DNA of 64,000 nt, taken from assembly GCA_007135755.1 (NCBI GenBank), contig SLIG01000007.1:17466-81465 (forward strand), given 5' to 3'. The DNA comes from Cyanobium sp. GTDB lineage: Bacteria; Cyanobacteriota; Cyanobacteriia; PCC-6307; Cyanobiaceae. The notes beneath the pieces were generated by a model, which saw only the letters and a program-made list of their open reading frames with translations, did no database searches and was not told where the DNA came from. Below, in pieces: positions 4,794 to 64,000 of the stretch (positions within the stretch are counted from its first letter, which is position 1; every line of letters begins with the position of its first letter). A program made the position numbers and the translations under genes.

Positions 4794-4794
4794 G

Positions 4795-4817
4795 AAAAAG
4801 CCACCCCGGAGGGTGGC
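4795..4817 (-). terminator. Rho-independent terminator after petF
   Basis: Minus strand reads GCCACCC-TCCG-GGGTGGC followed by TTTTT, 30 nt downstream of the petF stop. Confidence 0.75.
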
Positions 4818-4848
4818 GGAAGGATGGGCCGGATTCAACCCACTGGGC

Positions 4849-5148: not shown

Positions 5149-5326
5149 GGAAGGGATAGGGGCTCGCAGGCACCCGGGCGACCGGGCCTGTGGGACCTGC
5201 CCTTCCTACATCGGGCGGCCACCGTTCCTGTCGGTTTCGGGGGCTGGGCGGCGGAAGCCCAATCAAAGCCAGATCACCTATCAGCGTGCCTTATGCAACA
5301 CCCCGGCCAGCCGGGGCCGCCGCGCT

Positions 5327-6226
5327 TCAGGCCCTGCGAATCGTCAGCAAACCCCAGTCGCTCTGGCGGGCCGTGAGGGCAGCACTCCACCCCTGGGCCG
5401 CCAGCGCCTGGCGCAGCCGCGGCTCCTGGGACACCAGCAGGCCGCTCAGCAACCCCAGCCCAGCCGGGGCGAGCACGGCCTCGAAGGCGGGGCAGAGGGC
5501 CTCGATCACCGAGGCCAGGATGTTGCATAGCAGCAGGTCGGCCGGCCGCGACTCCAGCAGCTCCGCCAACGTTTCCACCGAGCCCTGCCGCACCCGCAGA
5601 CGCTGCTGCAGGCCGCAGGCCCGGGCGTTGCCGGCCGTGGCCCGCACCGCCAGGGGATCGGTGTCCACCGCGGCCACGGACGGGGCGCCGAGCTGCAGGG
5701 CGGCAAGGCCGAGGATGCCGCTGCCACAACCCAGATCTGCCACCCGCAGGCCGCTCAGGTCCGGGGCCATCCCCTCCAGGGCCTCCAGGCAGAGCCGGGT
5801 GGTGGGATGGCTGCCTGTGCCGAAGACACTGCCGGGATCCATGCGGATCACCAACCTCTGGGCGCAATCGGCAGGCACCTCCAACCAGGAGGGGAGAATC
5901 AGCAGCCGCTCGCCCACCGGGTCGGGGCGCCAGTGCTGCTTCCAGCTCAGGCTCCAGTCCTCATCGTCCTGCTGCTCCCAGCTGATCGGCGGCAGGGGCA
6001 GGCCGAAGGGCTCCGCCAGGGGCGCCAGGGCCGCCTGCAGCCGCTGGCGCTCAGGCTCGGGCCAGTCGGCGGCCGGCAGCCAGGCCAGCAGCTGCCGCTG
6101 GTCGGGGTGTTCCGGGCGGTGACGCACGGCGAGGCGGGGAATGCCCAGGCTGTCGAGTTTCCAGAGCAGGGATTCCTCCAGCTCCGGGGGGCAGGGCATC
6201 TGCAGACGCCACCAGGACTGAGGCAT
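5327..6226 (-). CDS. prmA: Ribosomal protein L11 methyltransferase
   Basis: 299 aa. SAM motif VADLGCGSGILGLAA and FGTGSHPTTRLCLEALE, typical of PrmA. Confidence 0.85.
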   Translation of the reverse strand: MPQSWWRLQMPCPPELEESLLWKLDSLGIPRLAVRHRPEHPDQRQLLAWLPAADWPEPERQRLQAALAPLAEPFGLPLPPISWEQQDDEDWSLSWKQHWRPDPVGERLLILPSWLEVPADCAQRLVIRMDPGSVFGTGSHPTTRLCLEALEGMAPDLSGLRVADLGCGSGILGLAALQLGAPSVAAVDTDPLAVRATAGNARACGLQQRLRVRQGSVETLAELLESRPADLLLCNILASVIEALCPAFEAVLAPAGLGLLSGLLVSQEPRLRQALAAQGWSAALTARQSDWGLLTIRRA

Positions 6227-6252
6227 GACGATGGCGCGTCGGGTCAGACCGC

Positions 6253-7842
6253 TCAGAGCAGGGTCACCGGGTGGGCCTCCTGAATGCCATCGATCCCGTG
6301 GATGCTCTCCAGCAGGCTGGCGGGAATCGGGTCGTCGAGGCTGAGCACCATCACGGCATCGCCGCGCACGATCCGGCGCCCCACCTGCATGGAGGCGATG
6401 TTGACATTGTGCTCACCCAGCACCGAGCCGATGCAGCCGATGATCCCGGGCATGTCGCGGTGGCGGGTGAACAGCATGTGGCGGCTGGGGCTCACCGACA
6501 CGGGGAACTCGTCGATGGCGGTGACGCGCAGGTCGCCATCACCGAACACGGCCCCGCTGACGCTGTGGTTCCCCTTGCTGCTGCGGGAGCGGAGTTCCAG
6601 GGAGCCGCCGGCATAGTCACGGGCCGCCTCATCCTTCACCTCCAGCACGTGGATGCCGCGGTCCTTGGCTTCCAGGCTGGCGTTCACATAGTTGATGGCA
6701 TCGCCCAGAGCGGTGGAGAGCACCCCCTTGAGCACCGCCACCACCAGGGGCTGGGCGGGATGGGCGGCAAACTCACCCTGCAGCCTCACCTCCAGCTCAC
6801 TGATCTGGCCGCCGGCCAGCTGACTGAGCAGCTGGCCGAGGGTTTCCGCCAGCTGCAGATGGGGCCGGAGCTGCTCCATCACCTCGGCATTGAGGCCAGG
6901 GATGTTCACGGCGCTGCGGGCCGGCTGCCCGAGCAACACATCGCGGATCTGCTCGGCCACATCGATGGCCACGTTCTCCTGGGCCTCGGCGGTGCTGGCC
7001 CCCAGGTGGGGAGTGAGCACCAGCCGCTCCTTCACGGTGCGCAGCGCTGAATCGGCCGCCAGAGGTTCCTTGGCGAACACATCGAGGGCGGCGCCGGCGA
7101 TCACGCCCGCCTCCACCGCCTCGGCCAGGGCCGCCTCATCCACGATCCCGCCCCGGGCGCAGTTCACCAGCCGGGCCGTGGGCTTCATGGTGCGCAGCAG
7201 CTCGGCATTCACCAGGTTCTCGGTGTCGGGGGTGCGCTGCAGGTGCAGGGTGACGTAATCGGCCTGGACGAACAGATCGGCCAGGGGCAGCAGCTTCACC
7301 TGCATGCTCTGGGCCCGTTCCTCGGAGACGAACGGGTCGTAGGCCAGCAGCTCCATACCCATCGCCTTGGCCACCCGGGCCACATGGGAGCCGATCTTGC
7401 CCAGGCCCACCACGCCGAGCTTCTTCTTGTAGAGCTCGTTCCCCACGTAGGTCTTGCGGTCCCAGCCGCCGGCCATGGTGCTGGCGTGGGCGTGGGGCAC
7501 ATGGCGCGAGAGGGAGAGCATCAGCGCCAGGGCATGCTCAGCGGCGGCGATCGTGTTGCCCTCGGGAGAGTTCACCACCAGCACGCCGCGCCGGGTGGCG
7601 GCGGGCACGTCCACGTTGTCGACGCCCACCCCGGCCCGGCCGATGATGCGCAGCTTTGTGGCGGCCTCGATGATCTCAGCGGTCACCGTGGTGCCCGAGC
7701 GGATCATCAGGCCCTCGTAGTCGCCGACGATCGCCTTGAGGTCCTCGGCCGACAGGCCGGTGCGCACATCGACAGTGGCCACCTGGGAGAGGATGTCGAT
7801 CCCCGCCTGGTCAATGGGATCGGAAACGAGAACCTTGGTCAT
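6253..7842 (-). CDS. serA: D-3-phosphoglycerate dehydrogenase (with C-terminal ACT domain)
   Basis: 529 aa. MTKVLVSDPIDQAGIDIL N-terminus, NAD motif GVVGLGKIGSHVA, long-form SerA architecture. Confidence 0.9.
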   Translation of the reverse strand: MTKVLVSDPIDQAGIDILSQVATVDVRTGLSAEDLKAIVGDYEGLMIRSGTTVTAEIIEAATKLRIIGRAGVGVDNVDVPAATRRGVLVVNSPEGNTIAAAEHALALMLSLSRHVPHAHASTMAGGWDRKTYVGNELYKKKLGVVGLGKIGSHVARVAKAMGMELLAYDPFVSEERAQSMQVKLLPLADLFVQADYVTLHLQRTPDTENLVNAELLRTMKPTARLVNCARGGIVDEAALAEAVEAGVIAGAALDVFAKEPLAADSALRTVKERLVLTPHLGASTAEAQENVAIDVAEQIRDVLLGQPARSAVNIPGLNAEVMEQLRPHLQLAETLGQLLSQLAGGQISELEVRLQGEFAAHPAQPLVVAVLKGVLSTALGDAINYVNASLEAKDRGIHVLEVKDEAARDYAGGSLELRSRSSKGNHSVSGAVFGDGDLRVTAIDEFPVSVSPSRHMLFTRHRDMPGIIGCIGSVLGEHNVNIASMQVGRRIVRGDAVMVLSLDDPIPASLLESIHGIDGIQEAHPVTLL

Positions 7843-9616: not shown

Positions 9617-11083
9617 ATGTCCGGCACCCGAGATACTTCCGCTGCCTTCACTGCTGCTCAGGAGGTCTCTGCCAGCGGATCGCCGGTCCCTCTGCCAGAT
9701 CTAGCGGCCGTGATCGGCATGGGCCGCTCGGGTATCGGAGCCGCCCGTTTGCTGCAGGCCCTCGGCGAACGGGTGGTGCTGCTTGAAAGCCGCAGCACGG
9801 AGACGATGCAGAAGCAGGCCGCACAACTGCGCCGCCAGGGCATCAACGTGCAGCTCAACCAGGGGCTGGATCTCGATGCCATCCTGGCGCTTGGCGCTGA
9901 CCTCAAGCGGGTGGTGGTGAGCCCGGGCATCCGCTGGGATCATCCGGTGCTGGAAGCCCTGCGCGCCCGGGGCATTGACGTGCAGGGTGAAGTGGAGCCG
10001 GCCTGGCACGCCAGCCGCCCGGTGCCCTGGATCGGCATCACCGGCACCAACGGCAAAACCACCGTCACCCATCTGGTGCACCACCTGCTGCGCAGCGCCG
10101 GCCGTGATGGGGAGATGGCCGGCAACGTGGGCCGCTCCGCGGCCGAAACCGTGCTGGAGCGGCGCCAGAGCACGCGAGGGCTTCCCGAGTGGCTGGTGGT
10201 GGAGCTGAGCAGCTACCAGATCGAGTCCTGCGACGCGGTGGCGCCGCAGGTGGGCATCTGGACCACCCTCACCCCCGACCATCTCGAGCGGCATGGCACG
10301 GTGGATCACTACCGCAGCATCAAACGCCGGTTGCTGGAGCGCAGTGCGGTGCGGGTGCTCAATGGCGATGATCCCGACCTGCGATCCAGGGCAGCGAGCT
10401 GGGATCAGGCGATCTGGGTGACGGCCGGGCCGCGGCAGCCCCTGGCCCCTGGGATCGAACCGGCCCTCTGGATCGAATCGGAGCGGGTGTTGCACATCCG
10501 GGGCGGGCAGCCCTGTGAGCTGATGGCCGCCGATGCCCTGGCCATGCCGGGATCCCACAACCGTCAGAACATGCTGCTGGCGGTGGCAGCCGGACTCGAG
10601 GCAGGCCTGGATGGCCCCACCATGGAGGCGGCCCTGCGCAGCTTCCCCGGAGTCCCCCACCGCCTGGAACTCATCCGCACCTGGCGGCAGGTGCGTTTCT
10701 TCAACGACAGCAAGGCCACCAACTACGACGCCGCCGAGGTGGCCCTCCAGGCCCTCGACGGGCCGCTGGTGGTTCTGGCCGGTGGCCAGGCGAAGATCGG
10801 TGAGGCCAGCGCCTGGGTGGCGGCCCTGAGGCAAAGCGCCAGGGCCGTGGTGCTCTTTGGAGAAGCGCAGGGGATGTTCGCGGGGCTGCTGCACGATCAG
10901 GGTTATGCCGGCCGCATCGACACCTGCCCCGGGCTGGAGCAGGCGGTGCCCCTGGCCGCGATGCTGGCCGAGCAACTGGGCTGCACGGCGGTGCTGCTCT
11001 CTCCGGCCTGTGCCAGCTTCGACCAGTACGCCGATTTCGAAGCCCGAGGGGAGCATTTCCGCGGCCTGGTGGCCCGGCTCTGA
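9617..11083 (+). CDS. murD: UDP-N-acetylmuramoyl-L-alanine--D-glutamate ligase
   Basis: 488 aa. Rossmann motif VIGMGRSGIGAA and Mur ligase P-loop GITGTNGKTTVTHL. C-terminal GGQAK...FDQY pattern. Confidence 0.9.
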   Translation: MSGTRDTSAAFTAAQEVSASGSPVPLPDLAAVIGMGRSGIGAARLLQALGERVVLLESRSTETMQKQAAQLRRQGINVQLNQGLDLDAILALGADLKRVVVSPGIRWDHPVLEALRARGIDVQGEVEPAWHASRPVPWIGITGTNGKTTVTHLVHHLLRSAGRDGEMAGNVGRSAAETVLERRQSTRGLPEWLVVELSSYQIESCDAVAPQVGIWTTLTPDHLERHGTVDHYRSIKRRLLERSAVRVLNGDDPDLRSRAASWDQAIWVTAGPRQPLAPGIEPALWIESERVLHIRGGQPCELMAADALAMPGSHNRQNMLLAVAAGLEAGLDGPTMEAALRSFPGVPHRLELIRTWRQVRFFNDSKATNYDAAEVALQALDGPLVVLAGGQAKIGEASAWVAALRQSARAVVLFGEAQGMFAGLLHDQGYAGRIDTCPGLEQAVPLAAMLAEQLGCTAVLLSPACASFDQYADFEARGEHFRGLVARL

Positions 11084-11154
11084 TCCGGGGAGCCCCGGAG
11101 CAGACGGCCAGCGCGGTGATCCGTAGCATCCACGCAGATGAGCAAACGCCTGCG

Positions 11155-11610
11155 GTGGCCTACTGGCTGATGAAGAGCGAGCCGGATGTCTATGGCATCG
11201 AGCATCTCCAGCGGGAGCAGACCACCCTCTGGGACGGCATCCGCAACTACCAGGCGCGCAACTTCATGCGCAGCATGGCGGTGGGCGACCTGGCCTTTTT
11301 TTATCACTCCAATACGAAACCACCTGGCATCGTGGGGCTGATGGAGGTGCTGGAGACCGGCTTGGTGGACCCCACCCAGTTCGATCCCAACTCCAAGTAT
11401 CACGACCCGGCCTCCAGCCAGGACAAACCCCGCTGGGACTGTGTGCGCCTGGGCTACGTGCGCCAGTTCCCCACCCTGCTGTCGCTGGAGACCCTGCGGC
11501 AGACCTTCACGCCGGAGCAATTGGGCGTGGTGCGCCGGGGTAACCGCCTCTCCATTGTGCCGGTGCCAGACAGCAGCGCCGAGCGGATCCTGAAGCTGCT
11601 GGAGAGCTGA
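11155..11610 (+). CDS. EVE (PUA-like) domain protein
   Basis: AYWLMKSEPDVYGIEHL...WDGIRNYQARNFMR...GDLAFFYHS is typical of EVE proteins. GTG at 11155 fits homologue N-termini. The ORF is open from 11116. Confidence 0.75.
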   Translation: MAYWLMKSEPDVYGIEHLQREQTTLWDGIRNYQARNFMRSMAVGDLAFFYHSNTKPPGIVGLMEVLETGLVDPTQFDPNSKYHDPASSQDKPRWDCVRLGYVRQFPTLLSLETLRQTFTPEQLGVVRRGNRLSIVPVPDSSAERILKLLES

Positions 11611-12392
11611 TGGGGGCCACCGCGCCCACAACCCCACCGATCGCCATCCGCCGCGCTCTGGAAGAGGGCTGGGATGGCTTCCGCCGCGGCAGCAGCACCC
11701 TGATCCCGTTCACCCTGCTGGTGGGCGGCCTGAATGTGCTCTGCCAACTGGCCATCCGCTTCAGCGGCGAGCGGATCGTGAATGTCTATGGCCAGACCGA
11801 CGCGCTGGCGCGCGCAGGCTTCCTGCTGGCCTGGCTCGCCTACCTGCTCAGCAACCTCTGGCTGGTGGTGGGCCTGCTGCGAGGGGCGAACACGGCGCTG
11901 AAACGGCAGCGGCCGCGGCTGCGGGATCTGTTGCGGCTGGACTGGCGGGCCCTGGGGCGAGCCGGCGGCACGTCAGCCCTGGTGCTGCTGGTGCTGGCGG
12001 TGATCTTCCGTCTGGCCCAGGCCAGCGCCTGGCTGCTGGCCCTGCTGCAGCCCCTGCTGGTGCCGCTGCCACTGCTGGCGGGGGGGGCCGCGGTGATCTA
12101 CGTGGTCACCGATCAGCTGCTCAGCCTGCCCCTGACCGTGCTGGGGGGGCATGGGCCCCTGGAGTCGTTCCGCCGCGGCCGGGCGGCCATCGACCCCCAC
12201 TGGCTGCAGGCGCTGGGCCTGACGCTGCTGCTGGGTCTGGTGCTGCTGTCGGGGTTTCTGCTGCTGGTGGTGGGCCTGGCGGCCTCCCTTCCGGTGACGG
12301 CCTGCATCCTGGTGGCGGCCTACCGCCAGCTGTTCAACCGCCGTGGAAGGGTCCCCGAGAGGGGAACAGATGGGCCAGGTAGCAGCGGGTGA
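11610..12392 (+). CDS. Polytopic integral membrane protein, function unknown
   Basis: 260 aa with about 5-6 hydrophobic spans. Its ATG overlaps the EVE stop (CTGATG). Confidence 0.6.
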   Translation: MGATAPTTPPIAIRRALEEGWDGFRRGSSTLIPFTLLVGGLNVLCQLAIRFSGERIVNVYGQTDALARAGFLLAWLAYLLSNLWLVVGLLRGANTALKRQRPRLRDLLRLDWRALGRAGGTSALVLLVLAVIFRLAQASAWLLALLQPLLVPLPLLAGGAAVIYVVTDQLLSLPLTVLGGHGPLESFRRGRAAIDPHWLQALGLTLLLGLVLLSGFLLLVVGLAASLPVTACILVAAYRQLFNRRGRVPERGTDGPGSSG

Positions 12393-12636
12393 CATCCCGG
12401 CTCTGCACCCCGTTCTGCACCAGGAAACCGGCCACGGCCGCCTGGAACAGGCGGTACTGATCCCAGTTGGGATGGGCATCGATGAACAGCCGCATCGACA
12501 CCAGCAGGGCCTCGGGCACCTCCGCCCGCAGGCTCACCATCGGCTCGCCCTGGTCTTCCGGCTGACCCCCGGCAGCCGGGGGATGGCCGGGTTCGGCAGC
12601 GCGGGTGGAGCGGCTGATCGTGACCTTCGTGTCCAT
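12334..12636 (-). CDS. DUF2811-like small cyanobacterial protein
   Basis: ...LRAEVPEALLVSMRLFIDAHPNWDQYRLFQAAVAGFLVQNG... matches my recollection of DUF2811. ATG at 12636. The 3' end overlaps the convergent membrane-protein gene by about 59 nt. Confidence 0.6.
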   Translation of the reverse strand: MDTKVTISRSTRAAEPGHPPAAGGQPEDQGEPMVSLRAEVPEALLVSMRLFIDAHPNWDQYRLFQAAVAGFLVQNGVQSRDVTRCYLAHLFPSRGPFHGG

Positions 12637-13020
12637 GGCTCTTCCCCCGAAGCGAGCCCAAGAATCCCGAACGCCCCCGGGGCCGTCAAATCCAGGCCAG
12701 TGCCCCATCTGCAGCCGCTCCCAGCCTGAGATCCCAGTGCAAACAAGGGTTCCCGGCGAGGAGCGCGACGCCCGCCCCGGACGCCGGGGGCACGGCCGCC
12801 GCTGTCAAGGGCAGGCTGGGCAAGCGGGCCGTATTCCACAGCACCAAGGGGGAGCGCGAGGGTCGCGGCCTTGCCCTGGGGAAAGCCTGGGGAAAAGCCA
12901 GGCCCCGCAGGGGGGATCCAGCCCCCAGCTGGAGTGATCAGCAGTGCTGATCAGCGGCCAGCAGCCTGGTCATTCTCAGGGCCACGGCTGCTTCATGCTG
13001 GTGCCCCGCATGCCTGGGCC

Positions 13021-54149: not shown

Positions 54150-54440
54150 ATGGCCTCGCGCCCTGCCAGTAGCTCATCCCCGGCCCGTTCTTCATCCTTG
54201 GCCAGCCGCCAGCCCGTCGGCCGCTCACCCGCCCGCCGCTCGCCCACCCGCACCGGGGGCGCCACGGTGCTGGATCTGCTCCAGCCCGGCAGCTTCGTGA
54301 AACTGCGCAACCAGCCCAGGGATCTGCCACCCTTCGAACTGATCCGCTGCCGCGGCGGCCGCTGCTGGGTGCGGCAGCAGGCCTGGGGGGGCGCGGTGCA
54401 GTGGGAGGTGGCACACCAGCGGCTCACCGCAGTGGCCTGA
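54150..54440 (+). CDS. Small hypothetical protein
   Basis: 96-aa ORF. The C-terminal about 55 aa (VLDLLQPGSFVKLRNQPRDLPPFELIRCRGGRCWVRQQAWGGAVQWEV) looks like a real small domain. The N-terminal Ser/Arg/Pro-rich part may be untranslated. Confidence 0.4.
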   Translation: MASRPASSSSPARSSSLASRQPVGRSPARRSPTRTGGATVLDLLQPGSFVKLRNQPRDLPPFELIRCRGGRCWVRQQAWGGAVQWEVAHQRLTAVA

Positions 54441-54552: not shown

Positions 54553-55848
54553 TTGATCGAGCGTTACACCCTGCCCGAGATGGGCAACCTCTGGAGCGAA
54601 CAGGCCAAGTTCCAGAGCTGGCTGGATGTGGAGATCGCCGCCACCGAAGCCAACTGCGAGCTGGGCCGGGTGCCGGCCGCGGCGGTGGCCACGATCAAGC
54701 TGAAGGCCGCCTTCAGCGTGGAGCGCATCCTCGAGATCGAGGCGGAGGTGCGCCACGACGTGATCGCCTTCCTCACCAACGTGAATGAGCACGTGGGCGA
54801 CGCCGGGCGCTACATCCACGTGGGCATGACCAGCTCCGATGTGCTCGACACCGGCCTGGCCCTGCAGCTGAAGGCCTCGGTGCAGCTCCTGCGCCGTGAG
54901 CTCGACCGGCTGGCCGACGCCATCCGGACGCTGGCGCGTGAGCACAAGGCCACGGTGATGATCGGCCGCAGCCACGCCATCCATGGCGAGCCGATCACCT
55001 TCGGCTTCAAAGTGGCCGGCTGGCTGGCGGAGGTGGAGCGCAACCGCGAGCGGCTGGAGCGCCTGGAGACCGTGGTGAGCGTGGGCCAGATCAGCGGCGC
55101 CATGGGCACCTACGCCAACACCGATCCCAAGGTGGAGGACCTGGCCTGCGCTCGCCTCGGCCTGGTGCCCGACACCGCCAGCACCCAGGTGATCAGCCGC
55201 GACCGCCACGCCGAATACGTGCAGACCCTGGCCCTGGTGGGGGCGGCCCTGGAGCGCTTCTCCACCGAGATCCGCAACTTGCAGCGCACCGACGTGCTCG
55301 AGGTGGAGGAGAACTTCGCCAAGGGCCAGAAGGGCAGCTCGGCCATGCCCCACAAGCGCAACCCGATCCGCAGCGAGCGCATCAGCGGCCTGGCGCGGGT
55401 GCTGCGGAGCTATGTGGTGGCGGCCCTGGAGAACTGCGCCCTCTGGCACGAGCGCGACATCAGCCACAGTTCGGTGGAGCGGATGATGCTGCCCGACTGC
55501 TCCGTGACCCTGCACTTCATGCTGCGGGAGATGACCGAGGTGGTGAAGGGCCTGGGCGTCTACCCCGACAACATGGCCCGCAACATGAATGTGTATGGCG
55601 GGGTGGTGTTCAGCCAGCGGGTGCTGCTGGCGCTGGTGGAGGCGGGCCTCAGCCGCGAAGAGGCCTATCTGATCGTGCAGCGCAACGCCCACAGCGCCTG
55701 GAACACCGCCGGCGGTGACTTCCGCGCCAACCTCGAAGCCGATACTGATGTGGCCACCCGACTCAGCCCCGCCGGGCTGGCCGCGTGCTTCTCCACCGAA
55801 CTGCACCAGGCCAACCTGGAGGTGATCTGGGAGCGGCTGGGGATCTGA
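54553..55848 (+). CDS. purB: Adenylosuccinate lyase
   Basis: 431 aa. (M)IERYTLPEMGNLWSEQAKFQSWLDVE and GSSAMPHKRNP signature. TTG start. Confidence 0.93.
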   Translation: MIERYTLPEMGNLWSEQAKFQSWLDVEIAATEANCELGRVPAAAVATIKLKAAFSVERILEIEAEVRHDVIAFLTNVNEHVGDAGRYIHVGMTSSDVLDTGLALQLKASVQLLRRELDRLADAIRTLAREHKATVMIGRSHAIHGEPITFGFKVAGWLAEVERNRERLERLETVVSVGQISGAMGTYANTDPKVEDLACARLGLVPDTASTQVISRDRHAEYVQTLALVGAALERFSTEIRNLQRTDVLEVEENFAKGQKGSSAMPHKRNPIRSERISGLARVLRSYVVAALENCALWHERDISHSSVERMMLPDCSVTLHFMLREMTEVVKGLGVYPDNMARNMNVYGGVVFSQRVLLALVEAGLSREEAYLIVQRNAHSAWNTAGGDFRANLEADTDVATRLSPAGLAACFSTELHQANLEVIWERLGI

Positions 55849-55896
55849 ACGGGCTGTCCCCAGGCCTCGGCCCATCACCATTGGGCCAGGTTTCGA

Positions 55897-57189
55897 TCAG
55901 TCCGCAAAGATGCGGTAGATCGAGGCGGCGTTGAGCACGGGGCCGAAGGGGGTGACGGCCTGGATCAGGAAGTCGTTGAAGCGGGTCCAGCCGTTGCGGG
56001 GCACCACCACCATGTCGCCATTGTGCAGCGCCGGGTTGGCCGGCGAATCCAGAGCCGCAGAGGGATCGAAGGCAATGCTGCGCACATCGATCTCGCCGCT
56101 GGGCTGCACCCGGATCAGACGGATCTCACGGGCGTTGGCCCGGCCCGGATCCACATCCCCGGCGGCGATCACCGCCGCGGCCAGGGGGCTGTTGGAGCGC
56201 ACCTGCATCAGGCCGGGCTGACGCACCTCACCCACCACCGTCACGCCGATGGTGTCGGGAGCGAAGTTGGAGGCGGCGGTGCGGATCAGCACATCGCTGG
56301 GCTTGGGCACCTCCGAGCGGGCCACCCGCACCATGTCACCGTCGTACAGAAGAGGGTTGACGGTGCTGGTGTTGTTCATCAGCAGCTCCTGGTAGTCGAA
56401 GCGGTACTCCACCACCCGGCCCCCGGGCATGGGACTGGGGCGGGTGAGCACCACCTCGGCCAGGTTGGCCACCGCCGTGATGCCGCCGGCCCGTTGCACC
56501 GCGTCCACCAGGGTGGGCCAACCGGCCGTGGTGATGGTGGTACCGGTGGTGGCCGGTCCGGCCGCCGCCAGGGTGGCTGCCTGGCTGCCCTGGGTGAGGG
56601 TGTAGAAGCCGGGCTTCTGCACCTCCCCCAGCAGGGTCACGCGCACCGGACGCGGCGCCACCAGGTCAAGATACACAAGGGGATTGCGCAGGAAGCGGTC
56701 GTAACCCTCGGTGATCCGCTGCCGGGCCTCATCGAGCGTCAGCCCCCAGACGGGAACCGACCCCAGCCGTGGCAGGTTGATGGTGCCATCCCCGAGCACC
56801 TCAACCTGGGCAGCGTACCCCTCCACCATGAACACCGACATGGTGAGGCGATCGCCCGGGCCGAGGCGGTAGCGCACGCTGCCGATGCCCGGATCCACGC
56901 TGGGCGAGGCGAATCTGGTGGCCGTGGTGACCGCGGGCGGCGAGGCCACCTCCCCCAGAGGGGCTGGTGTCCGCAGCCGGGGACGTTCAGGCGGAGCAGG
57001 GGGTTGGGAGTCGTCGCCAGCGGGATCGGGGATCGGGAAGGCGTCGGGTTGAACTCCCGGCTGAGCGAGGGCTGTGGCGGCGACGCCGAGGGGAACCAGG
57101 GCCACGGGCGTGAGCAGCAGGGCCAGGGATCGCCGGCGCAGGCGGCGGCCACCGGTTCGGTCTGCAGAGTTGAGCGGAGATGAAGACAC
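55897..57189 (-). CDS. Polysaccharide export protein (Wza/KpsD family: Poly_export + SLBB domains)
   Basis: YRLGPGDRLTMSVF...DGTINLPRLGSVPVWGLTLDEARQRI (Poly_export), then VRVTLLGEVQKPGFYTL and IGVTVVGEVRQPGLMQV (SLBB). Signal peptide without a lipobox Cys. Start is GTG 57189 or TTG 57246. Confidence 0.8.
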   Translation of the reverse strand: MSSSPLNSADRTGGRRLRRRSLALLLTPVALVPLGVAATALAQPGVQPDAFPIPDPAGDDSQPPAPPERPRLRTPAPLGEVASPPAVTTATRFASPSVDPGIGSVRYRLGPGDRLTMSVFMVEGYAAQVEVLGDGTINLPRLGSVPVWGLTLDEARQRITEGYDRFLRNPLVYLDLVAPRPVRVTLLGEVQKPGFYTLTQGSQAATLAAAGPATTGTTITTAGWPTLVDAVQRAGGITAVANLAEVVLTRPSPMPGGRVVEYRFDYQELLMNNTSTVNPLLYDGDMVRVARSEVPKPSDVLIRTAASNFAPDTIGVTVVGEVRQPGLMQVRSNSPLAAAVIAAGDVDPGRANAREIRLIRVQPSGEIDVRSIAFDPSAALDSPANPALHNGDMVVVPRNGWTRFNDFLIQAVTPFGPVLNAASIYRIFAD

Positions 57190-57279
57190 GGGGCCTGGGG
57201 GCGGAGGGAACCGGGGCCGGCCGGGCGGAGGGGGACACCAGGGCAAGCGGGCTAATCTTCACGCACCTCCAACCCCATC

Positions 57280-58248
57280 GTGAAGACGAGCGGCGGAAAT
57301 CCGTTGAATCTCTCCGCCGCGATCGCTCTTCCCCCTGATCGGATCCAAGCGGATCTGGCCCCCTTCCGCCTGTTGTGTTCCCAGGGGCTCGATCTCTACC
57401 TGCTTCCCGGCGAGCGCTTCGGGCCCTACGCCGAAGCCGTGGGCGAACTGCGCGAGCTCACCTACCGCCAGCAACTCTCAGGCTCCGGCAACAGCAGGGA
57501 CCTGGACAGCCGTGACCCCCATTACGACCACTTCCTGCTGGTGGAGGCCAGCAGTGGCGAGCTGGCGGGCTCGGCCCGGTTGCAGTTCGTGCCCGCTCAC
57601 CCAACCACTGGACCCGGCGGCCCGGGTGCCGCGCCCCTGCCGGGCAGCCAGCAGTCGTATCTGGAGCACGTGTACCCAGGCATCAAGGCCGACCTGGCCA
57701 GCCAGGGCAACCATCTGGAAATCGGCCGCGTGGCCCTGGCGCCCCGTTTCCAGCGCCAGCCCCACACCTTGATGCTGTTGTTCCGGGGCGGCCTGCAGGC
57801 GGCCGTGAGCGCGGGCTACAGCTCCATCCATGGCCTGGTGTCTTACAACCACTTCGCCTATGGGGAAGCGGTGAACCGGGAGTTTCTGGGCACCCTGCTG
57901 CGCTCCCCCTTCCTGGATGCCTCGTCGCCCCATCCCCAGCCCCGCCATCCGCTGGAGGGCCTGACACCCGATCCGAGGCAGGCAGCAGTGGCCACCATCC
58001 AGGAGCTGGAACTGGACATCCGCCACCGCCTCGATCCAGCCTTCCGGCTGCCCGTGCTGCTGCGCCAGTACATCAATCTGATGGAAGCCCGGGTGCGCAA
58101 CCTGTCGCTGGCCCGCGACTTCAACCAGATCACCGAGATCCTGATGGCCGCCGATCTGGCGCGGATCCCGGCCCGCAGGCTGGCCCACTTCATCGCCTTC
58201 GAGCACGAGCCGATCTACCGGACCTTCAGCTGGTATCGGGGGGGATGA
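57280..58248 (+). CDS. GNAT-fold N-acyltransferase of the OlsB/FeeM (Acetyltransf_5, 'putative hemolysin') family
   Basis: RELTYRQQ...DSRDPHYDHFLLVEASSGELAGSARL and C-terminal LPVLLRQYINLMEARV...DFNQITEILMAADLARIPARRLAHF parallel OlsB-type proteins. GTG start. Confidence 0.7.
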   Translation: MKTSGGNPLNLSAAIALPPDRIQADLAPFRLLCSQGLDLYLLPGERFGPYAEAVGELRELTYRQQLSGSGNSRDLDSRDPHYDHFLLVEASSGELAGSARLQFVPAHPTTGPGGPGAAPLPGSQQSYLEHVYPGIKADLASQGNHLEIGRVALAPRFQRQPHTLMLLFRGGLQAAVSAGYSSIHGLVSYNHFAYGEAVNREFLGTLLRSPFLDASSPHPQPRHPLEGLTPDPRQAAVATIQELELDIRHRLDPAFRLPVLLRQYINLMEARVRNLSLARDFNQITEILMAADLARIPARRLAHFIAFEHEPIYRTFSWYRGG

Positions 58249-58305
58249 GACAGTGCCAGTGAACTGGTACGTTGCCATCCGATCAGGGCGGGGCCGAGGG
58301 ACTTG

Positions 58306-58614
58306 ATGCACGCAGGCCCCGACAACGACAGCCGCGGAGCCTCGTCCCCAGCTCCTGGCGGGGAGAGCCTGCAGGGCCGTCTGATCGAGATCCTGCAGCG
58401 CATCTCCGGTGCCGATCTGGAGCAGATCACACCTGAGGCGCGCCTGATCGAGGACATCGGCATCGATTCCCTGGGCTTCTACGAGATCCTGATCGAGGCC
58501 GACGAGTGCCTCGGCATCAAGATCCGGGAGGAGGACCTGCTGCGCTTCCGCACCGTCGGGGATGTCCAGCGACACCTGGAATCGCTGGAGTCAGGCGATG
58601 GCACGAACAGCTGA
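58306..58614 (+). CDS. Dedicated acyl carrier protein (non-housekeeping)
   Basis: Phosphopantetheine site IEDIGIDSLGFYEILIEADE (DSL). Clearly different from canonical AcpP (DLGADSLDTVELVMALEE). About 35-aa low-complexity N-terminal extension. Confidence 0.8.
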   Translation: MHAGPDNDSRGASSPAPGGESLQGRLIEILQRISGADLEQITPEARLIEDIGIDSLGFYEILIEADECLGIKIREEDLLRFRTVGDVQRHLESLESGDGTNS

Positions 58615-59854
58615 GCGGGTCGCCGTGACCGGCTGGGGAGCGATCACCCCCCTGGCCGGTGATGCCGACGGCACCTGGACCGCCACCCTTGAGGGCCGCA
58701 GCGGCATCCGGGCTCTGCAGGAGGCATGGGCCAGCGACCTGCCCGCCCGCATCGCCGGCTGCGTCGACGCCGATGTGGCCGCAGCCCTCGAACCCCTGCA
58801 ACGCCGGCGCCTGGACCGCTGCTCCCAGCTGGGCCTGCTGGCGGCCCGCCAGGCCTGGAACCAGGCCCGGCCCCACCTGAGCGGCATCGACCCGGCCCGG
58901 GTGGCGGTGGTGATCGGCACGGGCATCGGCGGCCTGGCCACCCTGGAGCGGCAGCACTGCAACCTGCTGGAGGCCGGCCCCGGGCGCGTGAACCCACTCA
59001 CCGTGCCGATGCTGATCCCCAATGCCGCCGCGGGCCAGATCGCCATCGACCTGGGGCTCCACGGCGGCGCCCACACCCCCGTGTCGGCCTGTGCCTCCGG
59101 TGCCGAAGCGCTGCTGCTGGCCCAGATGCTGCTCAACGACGACCGGGCCGACGTGGTGATCGCCGGCGGCAGCGAAGCCCCCGTGAACCGGCTGGGGCTG
59201 GTGGGCTTTGCGGCCATGCGGGCTCTCTCCTGCCGCAATGAGGCCCCGGACCAGGCCTCCCGCCCCTACAGCCGCGACCGCGACGGCTTCGTGCTCTCCG
59301 AGGGTGCCGGGGCCCTGGTGCTGCAACGCCCGGACGACCTGCAGACCCATAATCCCAGACCCCTTGGCTGGCTGCTGGCCAGCGGCAGCAGCAGCGACGG
59401 GCACCACATCGTGGCACCAGAACCGGATGGGCTTAGGGCCAGTGCCGCCATGGCCGATGCCCTGAAAAGGGCCGATCTCGGGGTGGAGGCGCTCAGCTTC
59501 GTGCAGGCCCATGCCACCGGGACGCCGGTGGGCGATCTGGCAGAGGCGCGCGCCCTGGCGCGCACCCTCGGCGCCCGCAGCCACGACCTTCCGGTCACCG
59601 CCCCCAAAGGCCAGCTGGGGCATCTGCTCGGTGCAGCCGGCGCCGTGGAGACGATCCTTGCCCTGCAGGCCCTGCGCCGGGGCCTGGTGCCTCGCTCGTT
59701 GAATGCCGACCCCGTCGACCCGGCCATCGAGCTGGCGGTGGTGCGGGACGCTCCGCTGGCCCTGGCGGGCGGGGAGGCTGCCGGGGAGCGCTATGCCCTC
59801 AAGAACGCCTTCGGCTTCGGCGGCCACAACATCAGTCTGCTGCTGGCGGCCTGA
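58598..59854 (+). CDS. Beta-ketoacyl-ACP synthase II-like condensing enzyme (FabF paralogue)
   Basis: RVAVTGWGAITPLAG, active-site PVSACASGAEAL, HATGTPVGD and GHLLGAAGAVE (Cys-His-His triad), FGFGGHN. Its ATG overlaps the ACP 3' end by 17 nt. Confidence 0.88.
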   Translation: MARTAERVAVTGWGAITPLAGDADGTWTATLEGRSGIRALQEAWASDLPARIAGCVDADVAAALEPLQRRRLDRCSQLGLLAARQAWNQARPHLSGIDPARVAVVIGTGIGGLATLERQHCNLLEAGPGRVNPLTVPMLIPNAAAGQIAIDLGLHGGAHTPVSACASGAEALLLAQMLLNDDRADVVIAGGSEAPVNRLGLVGFAAMRALSCRNEAPDQASRPYSRDRDGFVLSEGAGALVLQRPDDLQTHNPRPLGWLLASGSSSDGHHIVAPEPDGLRASAAMADALKRADLGVEALSFVQAHATGTPVGDLAEARALARTLGARSHDLPVTAPKGQLGHLLGAAGAVETILALQALRRGLVPRSLNADPVDPAIELAVVRDAPLALAGGEAAGERYALKNAFGFGGHNISLLLAA

Positions 59855-61889
59855 GCTCGGCGGCGGCGTAGTGGGCCTGCACCGCCCGCACGAAAGTCTG
59901 GCGGTCGCAGCCCCGGTGGTCGGCGGAGCTCGCCGGCAGGGCCAGATCGCGGGAGCGCCCGCGGCGGCAGTGGATGGTGGCCAGGGGGGCGCTCAGCCGG
60001 GCGAGCAGCAGCCCCAGAGGGCGGTAGAGGTCGCGGCTGGAGGTGCTCAGGCCGTGGTAGCTGAAGGTCCAGGGCACGATCAGAGCCCCGTGTTTCCGGG
60101 CCAGCAGCAGGGCGCTGGCGGAGACGCGCTCACGGATGGGGGTCAGCAGGGAGCCGTTGGGAGCCAGCATCACCTCACCGCGCTCCGCCAGGGTGCGCGA
60201 GGCCCGGTAGAGGGCCGAGGTGCGCGAGCGGCCGTCGCGGTGGTCCATCAGGCCATGGCCGGCGTTGGCCGCTGAGGCCGAGAACCAGGGCATGATCCGG
60301 CTGAGGTGCAGGTTGGCCGTGGTGATGCTGGGCAGCCGCAGCACGCCCTGCACCACCAGCACATCGGCGGGGTGCTCATGGTTCCAGATGTGCACCAGGG
60401 GGATCCCCTCCGGTTCGCTGGGGTGGCTGTCATCCACCACCACGCTGATGCCCAGGGCCCGCAGGCCCACCTGAGCGGTCGCCACGAGTAACCGGGCAGC
60501 CAGCCGGCGCCGGCCCAGGGCCAGGGCCAGCAGCTGCAGGCCGTAGACCACGAAGTAGGAAACCCCCCAGAACAGGCGGGACAGCACCCGCAGGGGCAGC
60601 AACAGGGGAGAACTGGCTGACGCCTGGCCGGGGGCTGGCAACCGCGGCCGTGGCGCCAGCCGGCGCGCCTCCGGGCCGATCGGAAACGTGGTGCGGAAGG
60701 GAAAGTCGCCGTCGAAATTGCCATTCACCTGGGTGGAGGTCACCAGGTGGTCGTAGAAGCGGTAGAAGAGCGGCCGGTCGCTGGTGTGGGGCTCGCGCCA
60801 GAACTGATCCAGGGGTTGCTGGTCGGTGAGGCCTGGCAGGTTGTAGAAGGTCTGGCCCATGACCTTGGTGGGCACGGCGTGGTACAGCGCCTGCAGGCCC
60901 ACGGTGCTGTTCACGGTCACCACCCCCCGGCAGGTGCGCAGGAAACGGCTCAGGGCGCCGTCGTGGAAATAGTGCACCCGGCCCTCCACCCCGTAGCGGC
61001 GGGCCAGCAGCCGGATCAGCCGACCGTAGTGGTTGTAGCCGCGATCGCGAGGATGGTGCTTGAAAGCCAGATGATCGGAGGCATGGGCATGGCGAGCGAA
61101 GGAGCTGATCACGTCCTCGATGAAGTCGTGCATGCCCCGATAGGGCGACCCCAGCTGCACCTGGGAATCGCTGGACACCTGCAGCACGGCCAGGAAATAG
61201 GAGAGATGCTCCAGCAGACGCCGCTTGAGCCCCCGCTCCTGCCAGCGGTAGAGCCAGTAGCGCCAGCTGCCGCGCAGCTGGCACCAGAGAAACCGCGGCG
61301 AGGGTTGAAGCTTGTGCTCGCCCTCGATGATCGGGTAGCGGGTGGTGGCGTGCTGGATGAAGGTGGGGGCCTTCCAGAGCTTGCGCCAGCGCCAGCCCGG
61401 ATCCAGGGTGCCCTGGGGGAGAGCATCCACGGGCGGCAGCTGGCGGTAGAAGGCCACGGGCTGGTTGAGGTTGGAGCGGGCATTCACCCGCTCGCGCTCC
61501 AGGGTCACGTAGTTGGGACGGATGTAGCCCAGCTCGAACACCCAGGCCTCGATGCCGGCGCTGCGCGCCTCCTCGATGGCGATGCGGTGAGGAATGATGA
61601 AATCGCCATACATGAAGATGTGGCGGATGCCGCGCTCGCGGATCAGCTCGCGCACGAACGGCCGCCAGTCCTGCATCGAACCGCTGTAGGGCACCCGCAC
61701 CTCCCGCGGGAACCCGAACTCGCGGAGGGGAAAACTCACCTTGGTGACCGGGATGCCACAGCCGCGCAGGTAGCGGCAGAAGCGGGCGAAGAACAGCCCG
61801 ATCGGGCCCATCAGCAGCAGTACCGGGCCGTCGATCCGCACCTGAACCAACTGCACCGGCGCCGGAGCGGGGGCCCGTTCTGTGGTCAA
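59832..61889 (-). CDS. Fusion protein: KpsS-like capsule Kdo-transferase domain + TM linker + PlsC/OlsA-like lysolipid acyltransferase domain
   Basis: N-terminus LLLMGPIGLFF...MYGDFIIPHRIAIEEARSAGIEAWVFELGYIRPNYVTLERERVNARSNL parallels E. coli KpsS (LLLQGPMGPFF...FEEGYLRP...GVNA.S.L). Hydrophobic segment LFWGVSYFVVYGLQLLALAL. C-terminus has NHEHPAD (HX4D), then LAPNGS and IVPW. Confidence 0.8.
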   Translation of the reverse strand: MTTERAPAPAPVQLVQVRIDGPVLLLMGPIGLFFARFCRYLRGCGIPVTKVSFPLREFGFPREVRVPYSGSMQDWRPFVRELIRERGIRHIFMYGDFIIPHRIAIEEARSAGIEAWVFELGYIRPNYVTLERERVNARSNLNQPVAFYRQLPPVDALPQGTLDPGWRWRKLWKAPTFIQHATTRYPIIEGEHKLQPSPRFLWCQLRGSWRYWLYRWQERGLKRRLLEHLSYFLAVLQVSSDSQVQLGSPYRGMHDFIEDVISSFARHAHASDHLAFKHHPRDRGYNHYGRLIRLLARRYGVEGRVHYFHDGALSRFLRTCRGVVTVNSTVGLQALYHAVPTKVMGQTFYNLPGLTDQQPLDQFWREPHTSDRPLFYRFYDHLVTSTQVNGNFDGDFPFRTTFPIGPEARRLAPRPRLPAPGQASASSPLLLPLRVLSRLFWGVSYFVVYGLQLLALALGRRRLAARLLVATAQVGLRALGISVVVDDSHPSEPEGIPLVHIWNHEHPADVLVVQGVLRLPSITTANLHLSRIMPWFSASAANAGHGLMDHRDGRSRTSALYRASRTLAERGEVMLAPNGSLLTPIRERVSASALLLARKHGALIVPWTFSYHGLSTSSRDLYRPLGLLLARLSAPLATIHCRRGRSRDLALPASSADHRGCDRQTFVRAVQAHYAAAELRPPAAD

Positions 61890-61944
61890 CGCGGTGTCCT
61901 GAGGGGCAAGGCCTGGGCCAACTCTGCCATCCCAGGCAAGGGGC

Positions 61945-63981
61945 TCAGCGCCGCCGCAGCCGGCCCCAGTGGCGGAAGATGCGCTGGCGCAGGCTGAGGG
62001 GCACAGGCGGTGCCGAGCGCCAGGCCAGCAGCTCTTCGATCGCCTGCTCCGGCTCGATGAACAGGCCGCTGTGGCGGCTCACATAGCGGGGATAGTCGAT
62101 GAGGGCGCCATGCACCAGGGCATCGAGGCTGAGGCGGCGGCCCCGCCGCTCACAGCGCAGGCGGTCGTGGCTGAGGCCCCAGCCGGCATAGAAGGGCAGG
62201 CCCCAGGTGTGCACCTCGAGCTCCCGCAGCAGGGCCTCGAAGCCGGCGATCGAGGTGAGCACGTGCAGGGCGTCGATCTGGGTGAACAGCTGCTGGATCG
62301 CGGCATCGGCCACCAGCTCGTCACACCAGTCACGGGCTGCCGCCTCATTCGAGCCCGGCCGGCACAGCCCCGCCAACACGTCCGGGTGGGGCTTGTAGAG
62401 GAGGTAGGCCGCGGGCTCGGCGGCCCGCACCGCCTGCAGCAGGCCCAGGTTGGTGCGCACGCCTGGGGCGCCCAGCCTGATCGAGGCATCCGATTCCACC
62501 TGCCCCACCACCAGCACCACCCGCCGAACCCCGGCCGGTCGGAGCCAGGGGGGCGCCTGGAGGTTGTATTTGGTGATCGCCTCCGCCACCAGCCGCCGGC
62601 GCAGCGCCCGCGCCCGCCGCAGCTGCTGGTCGTTCCAGTGGCCGGTGGCCAGGCCATGTTCCAGATCACTGGGGCCACCGGCGTCGTAGTAGATGCCGCG
62701 CCGGTCGATCACCCAGGAGATCGGGTCGATCAGGTCGGCCCCCAGCCCCACCGAGCGCAGGAAACCATCCTCGGCATGGAGCAGCGGCAATGCCCGGCGG
62801 CGGGCCGCCTCCAGCAGCCGCGGGCGGGCCCGCCGGCCCCACACCGCCAGGGCCTGGGCATGGCGGTGTGGGGCCTGCCACTGGAACCGAAAGCGCAGCC
62901 GGCTGCCGGCCAGGAAGCGGCGCAGCACCCGTTGCTTCCAGGGGGTGAAGCCGAAAGCCTCGATGCGCTCCGGCAGCCGGCCCCGCAGCCTGCGCTGCAG
63001 GCCGATGGCCGCCACCAGCTCCTCCACCTGGCAGCGTTGGTGGCGGTGGGGATCCACATACACGGCGTAGTCCACCAGGGCGGCGTGGACCAGATCGGCC
63101 AGCTGGCGGGGAGCGGCGGCGGCGCGGCGCGGCGGCGGCGGCAGCGCGTCGCGGCTAAGGCCCCAGCCGGCATAGAAGGGCATGCCGAAGCAGTGCACCG
63201 GCCGGCCCCAGAGCAGGGCCTCGAAGCCCAGCTGAGAGGTGACGACGTACACCGCCTTGGCCCGCTCGAGCAGGGCCGCGGGATGGCCGCCACTGGCCTC
63301 GAGCCGGACGCGCGGATGCTGCAGTTGCCGGGCCTGGAAATGGCCGCGCTTTCGGCCGCGCACCACATCCGGATGGGTCTTGACGACCACCAGCCGGCCA
63401 GGATGGTCGGCCAGCGCGGTGGCGAGCATCGCCTCGAAGCTGGCGGCCGTGGCCCCGCCCAGGCCGATCGAGAGGTCGCCGGCGGTCTGATCGACCACCA
63501 GCACGAAGGGCTCCGCCGGCACCGGCGCCTCGCGACTGCCGTTGTACTTGCTCACCCGCTGCTCACACCACAGGCCGCGGATGGCCTCGGCCCGCTGCAG
63601 CTGGGCGGGAGTGCGGGGGGCGGCGATCAGGCGCTCCAGGCGGCAGGGGCGGCCAGCGTCGTAGTAGATGCCGGCGTCATCGAGCACCAGGCCCAGGGGA
63701 GCACTGTCGGGGCCCAGATCCAGGGAGCGCAGGAAGGCGTCCTCGCAGCGCCAGAGCGGCAGCTGCCGCCGGCGGGCCAGCCGCTCGGCCAGACGGGCGC
63801 TGGGTTTGCGTCCCCAGGCCAGCAGGGCATCGAGGTCGGCCCCGGCGCAGCGGGCCGCGCCGGTCACCAGCCGGTGGTCGGCCAGCAGGGCGGCCAAAGT
63901 GCGATGGCGCAGCATGCCGGCGGCCGGCAGACCCAGGCGGGCCGCTGGGAGAGGAGAGGCCAAGGGCGAGTCGGGGAGCAC
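61945..63981 (-). CDS. kpsC: KpsC-like capsule polysaccharide protein with two tandem Kdo-transferase modules
   Basis: N half has CEDAFLRSLDLG...DDAGIYYDAGRPCRLE...MPFYAGWGLS. C half has AEDGFLRSVGLG...DRRGIYYDAGGPSDLE...LPFYAGWGLS. 678 aa, as in E. coli KpsC. GTG start 19 nt from the window end. Confidence 0.85.
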   Translation of the reverse strand: MLPDSPLASPLPAARLGLPAAGMLRHRTLAALLADHRLVTGAARCAGADLDALLAWGRKPSARLAERLARRRQLPLWRCEDAFLRSLDLGPDSAPLGLVLDDAGIYYDAGRPCRLERLIAAPRTPAQLQRAEAIRGLWCEQRVSKYNGSREAPVPAEPFVLVVDQTAGDLSIGLGGATAASFEAMLATALADHPGRLVVVKTHPDVVRGRKRGHFQARQLQHPRVRLEASGGHPAALLERAKAVYVVTSQLGFEALLWGRPVHCFGMPFYAGWGLSRDALPPPPRRAAAAPRQLADLVHAALVDYAVYVDPHRHQRCQVEELVAAIGLQRRLRGRLPERIEAFGFTPWKQRVLRRFLAGSRLRFRFQWQAPHRHAQALAVWGRRARPRLLEAARRRALPLLHAEDGFLRSVGLGADLIDPISWVIDRRGIYYDAGGPSDLEHGLATGHWNDQQLRRARALRRRLVAEAITKYNLQAPPWLRPAGVRRVVLVVGQVESDASIRLGAPGVRTNLGLLQAVRAAEPAAYLLYKPHPDVLAGLCRPGSNEAAARDWCDELVADAAIQQLFTQIDALHVLTSIAGFEALLRELEVHTWGLPFYAGWGLSHDRLRCERRGRRLSLDALVHGALIDYPRYVSRHSGLFIEPEQAIEELLAWRSAPPVPLSLRQRIFRHWGRLRRR

Positions 63982-64000
63982 CCGACGAGGGCTGGCGGGA

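Follow-up and report, generated by a model that had tools for sequence, protein, structure and literature searches.

Rhizobial rkp-1 and Burkholderia wcb capsule regions encode their own acyl carrier protein (ACP; RkpF) and polyketide synthase (PKS; RkpA/WcbR), which are believed to produce a dedicated lipid on which the polysaccharide is carried. NodF/NodE and AcpXL/FabF-XL each combine a specialized ACP with a beta-ketoacyl-ACP synthase (KAS) II and, together with housekeeping reductase and dehydratase, furnish an acyl chain for a glycolipid. The Vi antigen (VexE) is an ABC-transporter-dependent capsule whose non-phospholipid acylated terminus derives from a locus-encoded acyltransferase, and Vi loci lack KpsS and KpsC. 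In Escherichia coli, KpsS primes on (lyso)phosphatidylglycerol, and KpsS and KpsC build the (lyso)phosphatidylglycerol-Kdo terminus (PMC10148158). A phylum-wide survey of cyanobacteria concluded that the confined distribution of KpsS/KpsC suggests either absence of a poly-Kdo linker or a different transfer mechanism (PMC4594306). Here we analyze a 64-kb stretch of Cyanobium contig SLIG01000007.1 (the window), in which three co-directional genes at 57280-59854 encode a GNAT N-acyltransferase, a divergent ACP and a FabF-like KAS paralogue, as domain matches and coordinates confirm. An earlier note on this DNA had taken the trio for a private acyl-chain module that might make a phosphorus-sparing aminolipid, and had remarked that aminolipids of this type are not an established cyanobacterial lipid class; a 2026 review agrees, placing OlsB homologues in Nostocales only and reporting no aminolipids in cyanobacteria (PMC12971839). 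What the note described in the sequence holds, but its interpretation is upheld only in part. We give about even odds that the GNAT-ACP-KAS operon supplies the lipid for a capsular polysaccharide locus of KpsS/KpsC type (group-2-like, ABC-transporter-dependent) in picocyanobacteria. Judged from its gene context, the lipid would most likely be a dedicated anchor for a surface polysaccharide and not a free phosphorus-sparing membrane lipid.

The trio sits in the middle of a group-2-like capsule locus, as it is flanked by genes for an outer-membrane polysaccharide export (OPX) protein, a KpsS-PlsC fusion, KpsC and polymer synthesis, in the order OPX(-) / GNAT ACP KAS(+) / PlsC-KpsS(-) KpsC(-). 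The PlsC-like domain noticed earlier next door to the trio is indeed present, but it forms the C-terminus of a KpsS homologue in a capsule locus, a context that had been missed. The fusion is a 685-aa open reading frame (ORF) on the minus strand (59832-61889) whose 3' end overlaps that of the KAS gene by 23 nt. Its N-terminal ~400 residues (60700..61889) are a KpsS homologue matching PF05159 (Capsule_synth) at 8.8e-58, with the KpsS model NF050054 as best NCBIfam match (283 bits, cut-off 600). KpsS and KpsC, which are retaining ulosonic-acid transferases (GT107), both belong to PF05159. The C-terminal part (59832..60500) is a PlsC/LPLAT-like acyltransferase domain, with PF01553 matched at residues 493-608 (6.7e-6) and an HX4D motif, NHEHPAD, in which Asn503, His504 and Asp509 are invariant in 41 homologues. 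An AlphaFold2 (AF2) model of the fusion places two long helices (430-478) ahead of the alpha/beta acyltransferase domain; membrane-associated PlsC likewise has helices ahead of its catalytic domain. Foldseek with the full model returned GT-B folds, KpsC 6MGD among them, and since the GT-B domain dominated this search it carries no information on the acyltransferase domain.

To gauge how constant this neighborhood is, one genome per species (185,579 species) was scanned with the subfamily motif SYLE[HF][CVS]YP[GD], and neighbors were located by tblastn of window proteins. The scan yielded 85 GNAT relatives, of which 80 loci were kept, all picocyanobacterial by locus content; they come from Cyanobium, Vulcanococcus, marine Synechococcus (including the complete genome MIT S1220) and Aphanothece of freshwater, soda-lake and marine habitats. 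Counting only loci with enough flank, KpsS adjoined the GNAT in 64/64 genome loci, KpsC in 56/56 and OPX in 65/66, and metagenome loci gave 23/24, 16/16 and 26/28, respectively. The link to KpsS/KpsC also holds for GNATs just 31-40% identical to that of the window and across differing polymer gene sets. ACP and KAS, by contrast, accompany the GNAT in roughly half of loci and therefore do not belong to the conserved core, which consists of GNAT, KpsS(-PlsC), KpsC and OPX; the pair is accessory. With an acyltransferase fused to KpsS, and a GNAT found constantly with KpsS/KpsC whatever the polymer genes, a lipid serving as both acceptor and anchor of the polysaccharide would be the most economical explanation.

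Loci fall into several architectures. In type A, to which the window belongs in gene order, the GNAT is at least 53% identical to that of the window and the arrangement is OPX / GNAT ACP KAS / PlsC-KpsS KpsC. Type B loci, from freshwater Cyanobium (L006, L054-L087, L102-L139), have a GNAT 31-40% identical and the order OPX GT4 / GNAT / PlsC-KpsS KpsC DUF1997 KpsM KpsT x GT2; they are without ACP, KAS and DUF6716/nonulosonic-acid genes, and encode an unknown 419-aa protein and a PhyH-like gene. KpsM/KpsT follow KpsC directly in loci without ACP and KAS. Most loci have the acyltransferase fused to KpsS. In three marine or Black Sea Synechococcus loci (L008, at 10001-12673, L047 and L049), however, a 250-aa acyltransferase gene of its own lies downstream of a 632-aa KpsS; the fusion is thus split in those lineages. 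This longer KpsS has an extra C-terminal region of no recognized family. In one locus (L146), GNAT-ACP-KAS directly adjoins KpsC. Three low-GC metagenomic relatives, with GNATs 22-30% identical, occur in kps-type or PlsC-like surroundings. One (L116, GC 0.34) has PseB/PseC-like genes followed by OPX / KpsM KpsT x GNAT / KpsS; another (L099, GC 0.40) has the GNAT together with OPX, Capsule_synth, a cytidylyltransferase and NeuB; and in the third (L101, GC 0.37) the gene directly upstream of the GNAT is PlsC-like, with 41% identity to the domain described here. The association therefore reaches beyond picocyanobacteria. Four metagenome-assembled genomes carry the titles Bradyrhizobium ivorense, Mesorhizobium carmichaelinearum, Bifidobacterium breve and Pseudanabaena (L022, L053, L074 and L086); since their loci are typical picocyanobacterial versions, these public titles look like mislabels.

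The GNAT gene (57280..58248, plus strand) has a GTG start and encodes 322 aa with a PF13444 (Acetyltransf_5) match at 1e-10 and an SYLEHxYPG motif. Residues 49-305 align to positions 319-569 of the 570-position OlsF model, its C-terminal N-acyltransferase domain (4.3e-11), so that the PF13444 domain and the C-terminal extension, a region of ~150 aa common to OlsB/OlsF, can be aligned across the whole of that domain. An exhaustive profile-free search returned just 11 cluster representatives at E < 1e-30; beyond these, at 22-36% identity, came bifunctional synthases of OlsF type (~600 aa) and OlsB-like proteins (~300 aa). All 122 sequences compared share Glu147 and Arg150. An AF2 model (pLDDT 92.9) has a GNAT fold, and its nearest folds by Foldseek are CurA GNAT-L, the acyl-homoserine lactone synthases MesI/RpaI/EsaI/BjaI and FeeM (2G0B, target TM-score 0.66). 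A PDB sequence search with the GNAT gave zero matches at E up to 10, FeeM included, and NCBIfam hits at E up to 0.01 contained no match to the exosortase-associated N-acyltransferase model. Of the OlsB/FeeM likeness initially proposed, then, the OlsB side is upheld, in that the protein groups by sequence with OlsB/OlsF/GlsB-type enzymes, whereas likeness to FeeM exists at the fold level only. By these comparisons the GNAT represents a subfamily of its own among aminolipid N-acyltransferases, outside OlsB, OlsF, GlsB, FeeM and the exosortase-linked synthases.

The ACP gene (58306..58614, plus strand), 54-57 nt downstream of the GNAT gene, encodes ~102 aa (ATG 58306; the ORF begins at TTG 58303) with a PP-binding match at 4e-11. 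Ser56, in IGIDSLG, is the predicted phosphopantetheine attachment site, and Asp-Ser-Leu is invariant in 49 orthologues. The KAS gene (58598..59854, plus strand) encodes a 418-aa FabF-like KAS II paralogue with both ketoacyl-synthase domains. Its ATG at 58598 lies inside the ACP gene, whose stop is at 58612-58614, giving the 17-nt overlap originally reported, which recurs identically in gene calls of two distant relatives, Cyanobium M30B3 and NAT70; an alternative, longer ORF starts from ATG 58562. The Cys-His-His triad is retained as had been claimed, and the catalytic Lys as well: Cys165, His305, Lys337 and His342 align to Thermus thermophilus FabF 1J3N and do not vary among 51 distinct orthologues spanning 42-97% identity. 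The active site thus reads as intact, and catalytic residues of the module proteins are under purifying selection.

In favor of this pair being the housekeeping acpP-fabF of the genome, the KAS has an intact active site and scores above the threshold of NCBIfam subfamily model NF005589 (410.7 versus 387 bits). No second ACP or KAS, including housekeeping acpP/fabF, was found within the 64-kb window. However, a canonical psaC-acpP-fabF-tktA locus is present in Cyanobium assemblies and metagenomes. Its 80-aa AcpP is identical across many assemblies, canonical picocyanobacterial AcpP being extremely conserved, and shares 59% identity with the E. coli protein. For the module ACP, identity is 28% with E. 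coli AcpP and 31% with the canonical Cyanobium protein; it falls under every ACP equivalog cut-off, and has the motif IGIDSLGFYEILIEADE in place of the near-invariant DLGADSLDTVELVMALEE of AcpP. The KAS is 40% identical to canonical Cyanobium FabF and under the fabF equivalog cut-off (TIGR03150, 417 versus 493.75 bits). Furthermore, the pair is absent from about half of GNAT-bearing picocyanobacterial loci, including all type B genomes, and Cyanobium NIES-981 has both canonical AcpP and a KpsS-PlsC fusion whose nearest relatives (82% identity) are in type A loci. With the canonical locus known from other Cyanobium assemblies, a housekeeping role is very unlikely, to the point of being negligible, and we regard ACP/KAS as a private paralogous pair, as the earlier note had predicted.

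The remaining capsule genes complete the picture. The OPX gene (55897..57189, minus strand), divergent from the GNAT gene, encodes a Wza/KpsD-like protein with Poly_export, SLBB and SLBB_2 matches; its longest ORF reaches 57246, and the gene call on the source contig (L001) is 430 aa. KpsC (61945..63981, minus strand) has two GT107 modules, the N-module matching 6MGB/6MGC and the C-module 6MGD (E ~1e-62), with conserved stretches DQTxGD and GQVESDASI, and is by sequence a bona fide dual GT107 protein. Past the window end at 64000, the source contig (L001 1287-9650) encodes a cytidylyltransferase, three DUF6716 putative glycosyltransferases, a 761-aa NeuB-type synthase fused to CBS and AP_endonuc_2 (AP-endonuclease-2) domains, and two sulfotransferases, a gene set that points to a sulfated polymer with nonulosonic acid among its sugars. 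The edge of an island may lie at L001 336-704, where there is an HTH_Tnp_1 gene.

From these identities we infer a route by which such a locus could supply its own lipid. The private KAS II would carry out one condensation between an acyl primer and malonyl on the private ACP, and housekeeping reductase (FabG) would convert the product to a 3-hydroxyacyl chain on this carrier, which bulk fatty-acid enzymes may handle poorly. By analogy with OlsB/OlsA (PMC12971839), the GNAT would then use the chain to acylate the nitrogen of a small acceptor amine, probably an amino acid. To the resulting N-(3-hydroxyacyl) amino compound, or lyso-aminolipid, the PlsC-like domain of the fusion would esterify a second acyl chain as OlsA does, making an acyloxyacyl aminolipid possible. 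Glycosylation of this lipid would begin with one ulosonic-acid residue, added by the KpsS domain, and continue with KpsC. The chain would be built by the DUF6716 glycosyltransferases, nonulosonic-acid synthesis enzymes and sulfotransferases and exported through OPX. In genomes without ACP and KAS, the GNAT would draw on housekeeping acyl-AcpP. A more specific proposal, which we offer tentatively as somewhat short of even, is that the anchor of a capsule-like, KpsS/KpsC-primed polysaccharide in picocyanobacteria is not (lyso)phosphatidylglycerol but an acyl(oxyacyl) aminolipid free of phosphorus. The polymer in the window lineage would probably be nonulosonic-acid-rich and sulfated; the lipid would come from the OlsB-like GNAT and the KpsS-fused PlsC domain, with private ACP and KAS giving an insulated 3-hydroxyacyl donor in about half of lineages.

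Several observations weigh against a lipid anchor of this kind. A hydroxyl that KpsS could glycosylate is an assumption of the model. The two-step OlsB/OlsA pathway that the earlier note had recognized is echoed by the PF01553 domain as a constant neighbor, but scores are far below the corresponding OlsB/OlsF/GlsB/PlsC equivalog cut-offs. With cut-offs of 620 bits for OlsF, 320-350 for OlsB and 300 for GlsB, the window GNAT reaches 42.1 bits with the OlsF model and had no match to the OlsB and GlsB models among NCBIfam hits at E up to 0.01; its relatives P0124-P0140, at 27-63 bits, do match GlsB and OlsB, again far below the cut-offs. The PlsC domain scores weakly, at 17-26 bits versus a cut-off of 103, with the 1-acylglycerol-3-phosphate acyltransferase (AGPAT) model TIGR00530, and phmmer of this domain against the N-terminal O-acyltransferase domains of 72 OlsF-like proteins gave zero matches; its sequence thus gives no assignment to OlsA, GlsA or the OlsF N-domain. 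In type C loci (L119, L123 at 2290-6264, and L144), GNAT, ACP and KAS stand beside a 406-aa KpsS without a PlsC domain. No KpsM/KpsT was found in the last 8 kb of the window or the following 10 kb, nor within 10 kb of the locus type with ACP and KAS. The cytidylyltransferase past the window is PseF-like rather than KdsB-like (108 versus 43 bits), which makes the sugar moved by KpsS/KpsC uncertain. The association figures cover the GNAT subfamily defined by the SYLEHxYPG-type motif only. Finally, CMP-nonulosonate synthetase and DUF6716 genes are present in 34/37 ACP+KAS loci versus 0/40 loci without the pair.

Because ACP and KAS track the nonulosonic-acid/DUF6716 type in this way, a role in sugar decoration stays alive, in which the GNAT, fed by ACP and KAS, would N-acylate an amino-sugar or nonulosonic-acid precursor (e.g. 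with a 3-hydroxyacyl group) and no lipid anchor would be made. N-acyl variants of nonulosonic acids are known, 3-hydroxybutyryl among them, and PseB/PseC- or NeuB-type genes lie near the GNAT in two of the low-GC loci (L116 and L099). Nevertheless, this explanation is unlikely: the GNAT is kept beside KpsS/KpsC in ~40 loci without nonulosonic-acid genes in their flanks, ACP and KAS occur without DUF6716 genes in L025, L057 and L146, the constant partner is a membrane-type PlsC/LPLAT domain, and the nearest characterized relatives of the GNAT acylate amino acids using long 3-hydroxyacyl-ACP. A released N-acyl amino acid, like the products of N-acyl amino acid synthases in PEP-CTERM/exosortase loci, is distinctly improbable. 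The fold likeness to FeeM is in its favor, and a link of N-acyl amino acid synthases to exopolysaccharide/exosortase loci is documented (Craig et al. 2011, cited in PMC11631085); yet, in the searches described above, sequence matches to FeeM and to exosortase-associated models were both zero, and this reading offers no reason for an acyltransferase to be fused to KpsS.

The phosphorus-sparing proposal holds that the locus makes a free, phosphorus-free membrane aminolipid in the manner of OlsB/OlsA, with capsule genes merely adjacent. It can call on the similarity of the GNAT to OlsF/OlsB/GlsB, on the PF01553 partner, and on the replacement of phospholipids by aminolipids in other marine bacteria under phosphorus limitation (PMC6298996). 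But one polypeptide joins the acyltransferase to KpsS, and practically all genomes with the GNAT have it together with KpsS/KpsC, so that a free lipid is not the favored explanation. No ornithine lipid has been identified in a cyanobacterium (PMC12971839), and the locus occurs in just a subset of picocyanobacteria. Nor was a convincing Pho box found. The sole Pho-box-like match in 64 kb, CTTCATCTCCGCTCAACTC at 57167-57185 (minus strand), has 3 mismatches and lies just inside the OPX gene, within a few bases of the start called at 57189 and of the divergent intergenic region. Such a match is no more than chance would give (0.6 matches expected, with at least one in 46% of shuffles), and orthologous loci showed no conserved repeat of it. 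An apparent Pho-box enrichment in orthologous intergenic regions proved to be a single conserved TAATCTTC box and not a repeated Pho box, and was rejected as evidence of phosphate regulation. Collectively, these data make a free aminolipid improbable.

The conserved element itself, TAATCTTC(A/C)C(G/T)CA, spans 57253..57265 on the plus strand; its TAATCT, of TAnnnT form, ends 21 nt ahead of the GNAT GTG start. The box is found at the equivalent position in 35/56 ACP+KAS loci (55-70% GC) versus 3/86 loci without ACP and KAS. It is probably a -10 promoter element of the GNAT-ACP-KAS operon, which would then have a short 5' untranslated region. A promoter and terminator scan of 55.8-64 kb gave zero sigma-70 consensus matches and one terminator-like site, not above chance.

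The window as a whole has a GC content of ~69% and contains core picocyanobacterial genes, namely the ATP synthase operon, apcE/apcAB, groEL, serA, murD, ftsW, ccdA, ccs1, queF, glnB, tlyA and purB. By codon-position GC, the GNAT-ACP-KAS genes (GC3 0.84-0.87) are in line with the remaining window. The marine picocyanobacterial setting assumed in the earlier note does not apply, the source being a soda-lake Cyanobium: three soda-lake or alkali-sediment metagenomes contain the window sequence completely over 55800-64000 (99-100% of sampled words), with a DNA contig depth on the locus of ~50x in one and 12-20x in another, and the closest species representative to the locus is Cyanobium sp. PLM2.Bin73 (94-97% protein identity). 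In a metatranscriptome from the same sample as one of these DNA metagenomes, contigs cover parts of OPX, GNAT, KAS, the KpsS-PlsC fusion and KpsC, which shows transcription of locus genes in situ, subject to possible DNA carry-over. Elsewhere in the window, a small ORF of ~96 aa without a Pfam match (54150-54440, plus strand) lies between tlyA and purB and is also gene-called in the source contig; Cyanobium M30B3 has a 75-aa gene at the equivalent position.

The KpsS-acyltransferase fusion and the aminolipid-type GNAT suggest that the lipid acceptor of a capsule can be custom-made and possibly phosphate-free, and the locus is a concrete candidate for the different transfer mechanism raised for cyanobacteria (PMC4594306). 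If true, cyanobacteria would have their first aminolipid function, and capsules a lipid terminus of a new class; a phosphate-free anchor would also match, in another form, the intuition behind the phosphorus-sparing proposal. Current annotation names hide the link between the two proteins, the fusion being listed as '1-acyl-sn-glycerol-3-phosphate acyltransferase' or 'capsular biosynthesis protein' and the GNAT as 'GNAT family N-acetyltransferase'. Surface polysaccharides govern grazing, phage adsorption and aggregation in other bacteria, and by analogy a similar role is plausible here. No description of such a module was found in the searchable literature, where queries for KpsS with Synechococcus or acyltransferase returned nothing relevant.

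As judged by its genes, the locus brings together three elements: a capsule system of KpsS/KpsC type, a lipid pair resembling OlsB/OlsA, and an ACP/KAS pair resembling NodFE. With the group 2 capsule of E. coli and Neisseria it shares dual-module KpsC, a KpsS-family glycosyltransferase and OPX, with KpsM/KpsT alongside in sister loci; here, however, KpsS is fused to a PlsC-like domain and accompanied by an OlsB-like GNAT and often ACP and KAS, and the sugar-activation genes are PseF/NeuB-like, not KdsB-like. Given the fusion and the GNAT, the lipid acceptor is probably not plain phosphatidylglycerol. Like OlsB/OlsA, OlsF and GlsB/GlsA, the locus has a PF13444 GNAT, aligned over the OlsF N-acyltransferase domain, and a PF01553-type partner. 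The nearest outside relatives of the GNAT are the bifunctional OlsF-type synthases, which unite PlsC-like and OlsB-like parts. Unlike OlsB/OlsF, it scores 42 bits versus 620 and is 22-36% identical to OlsF-like proteins, its PlsC domain has no detectable relation to OlsF N-domains, and its O-acyltransferase-type partner, in contrast to OlsA, is fused to a glycosyltransferase in a capsule-locus context. Known OlsB uses housekeeping AcpP (PMC12971839). FeeM and other N-acyl amino acid synthases resemble the GNAT in fold, in a link to exopolysaccharide loci and, by analogy, probably in acyl-ACP-dependent chemistry, but they differ in that no sequence-level or exosortase-model match was obtained in the searches above and in the ~150-aa C-terminal extra region found here. 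The Vi system dispenses with KpsS/KpsC, whereas here both are kept and combined with acyltransferases. By gene content, a private ACP translationally coupled to a FabF paralogue recalls NodF/NodE and AcpXL/FabF-XL, although the chain would go to a GNAT in a capsule locus and not to NodA or LpxXL. In gene content and literature, the rkp-1 and wcb regions are likewise ABC-transporter-type capsule loci with their own carrier protein and condensing enzyme; type I PKS and other enzymes serve there, and a discrete FabF-like KAS, an ACP and an OlsB-like GNAT are found here.

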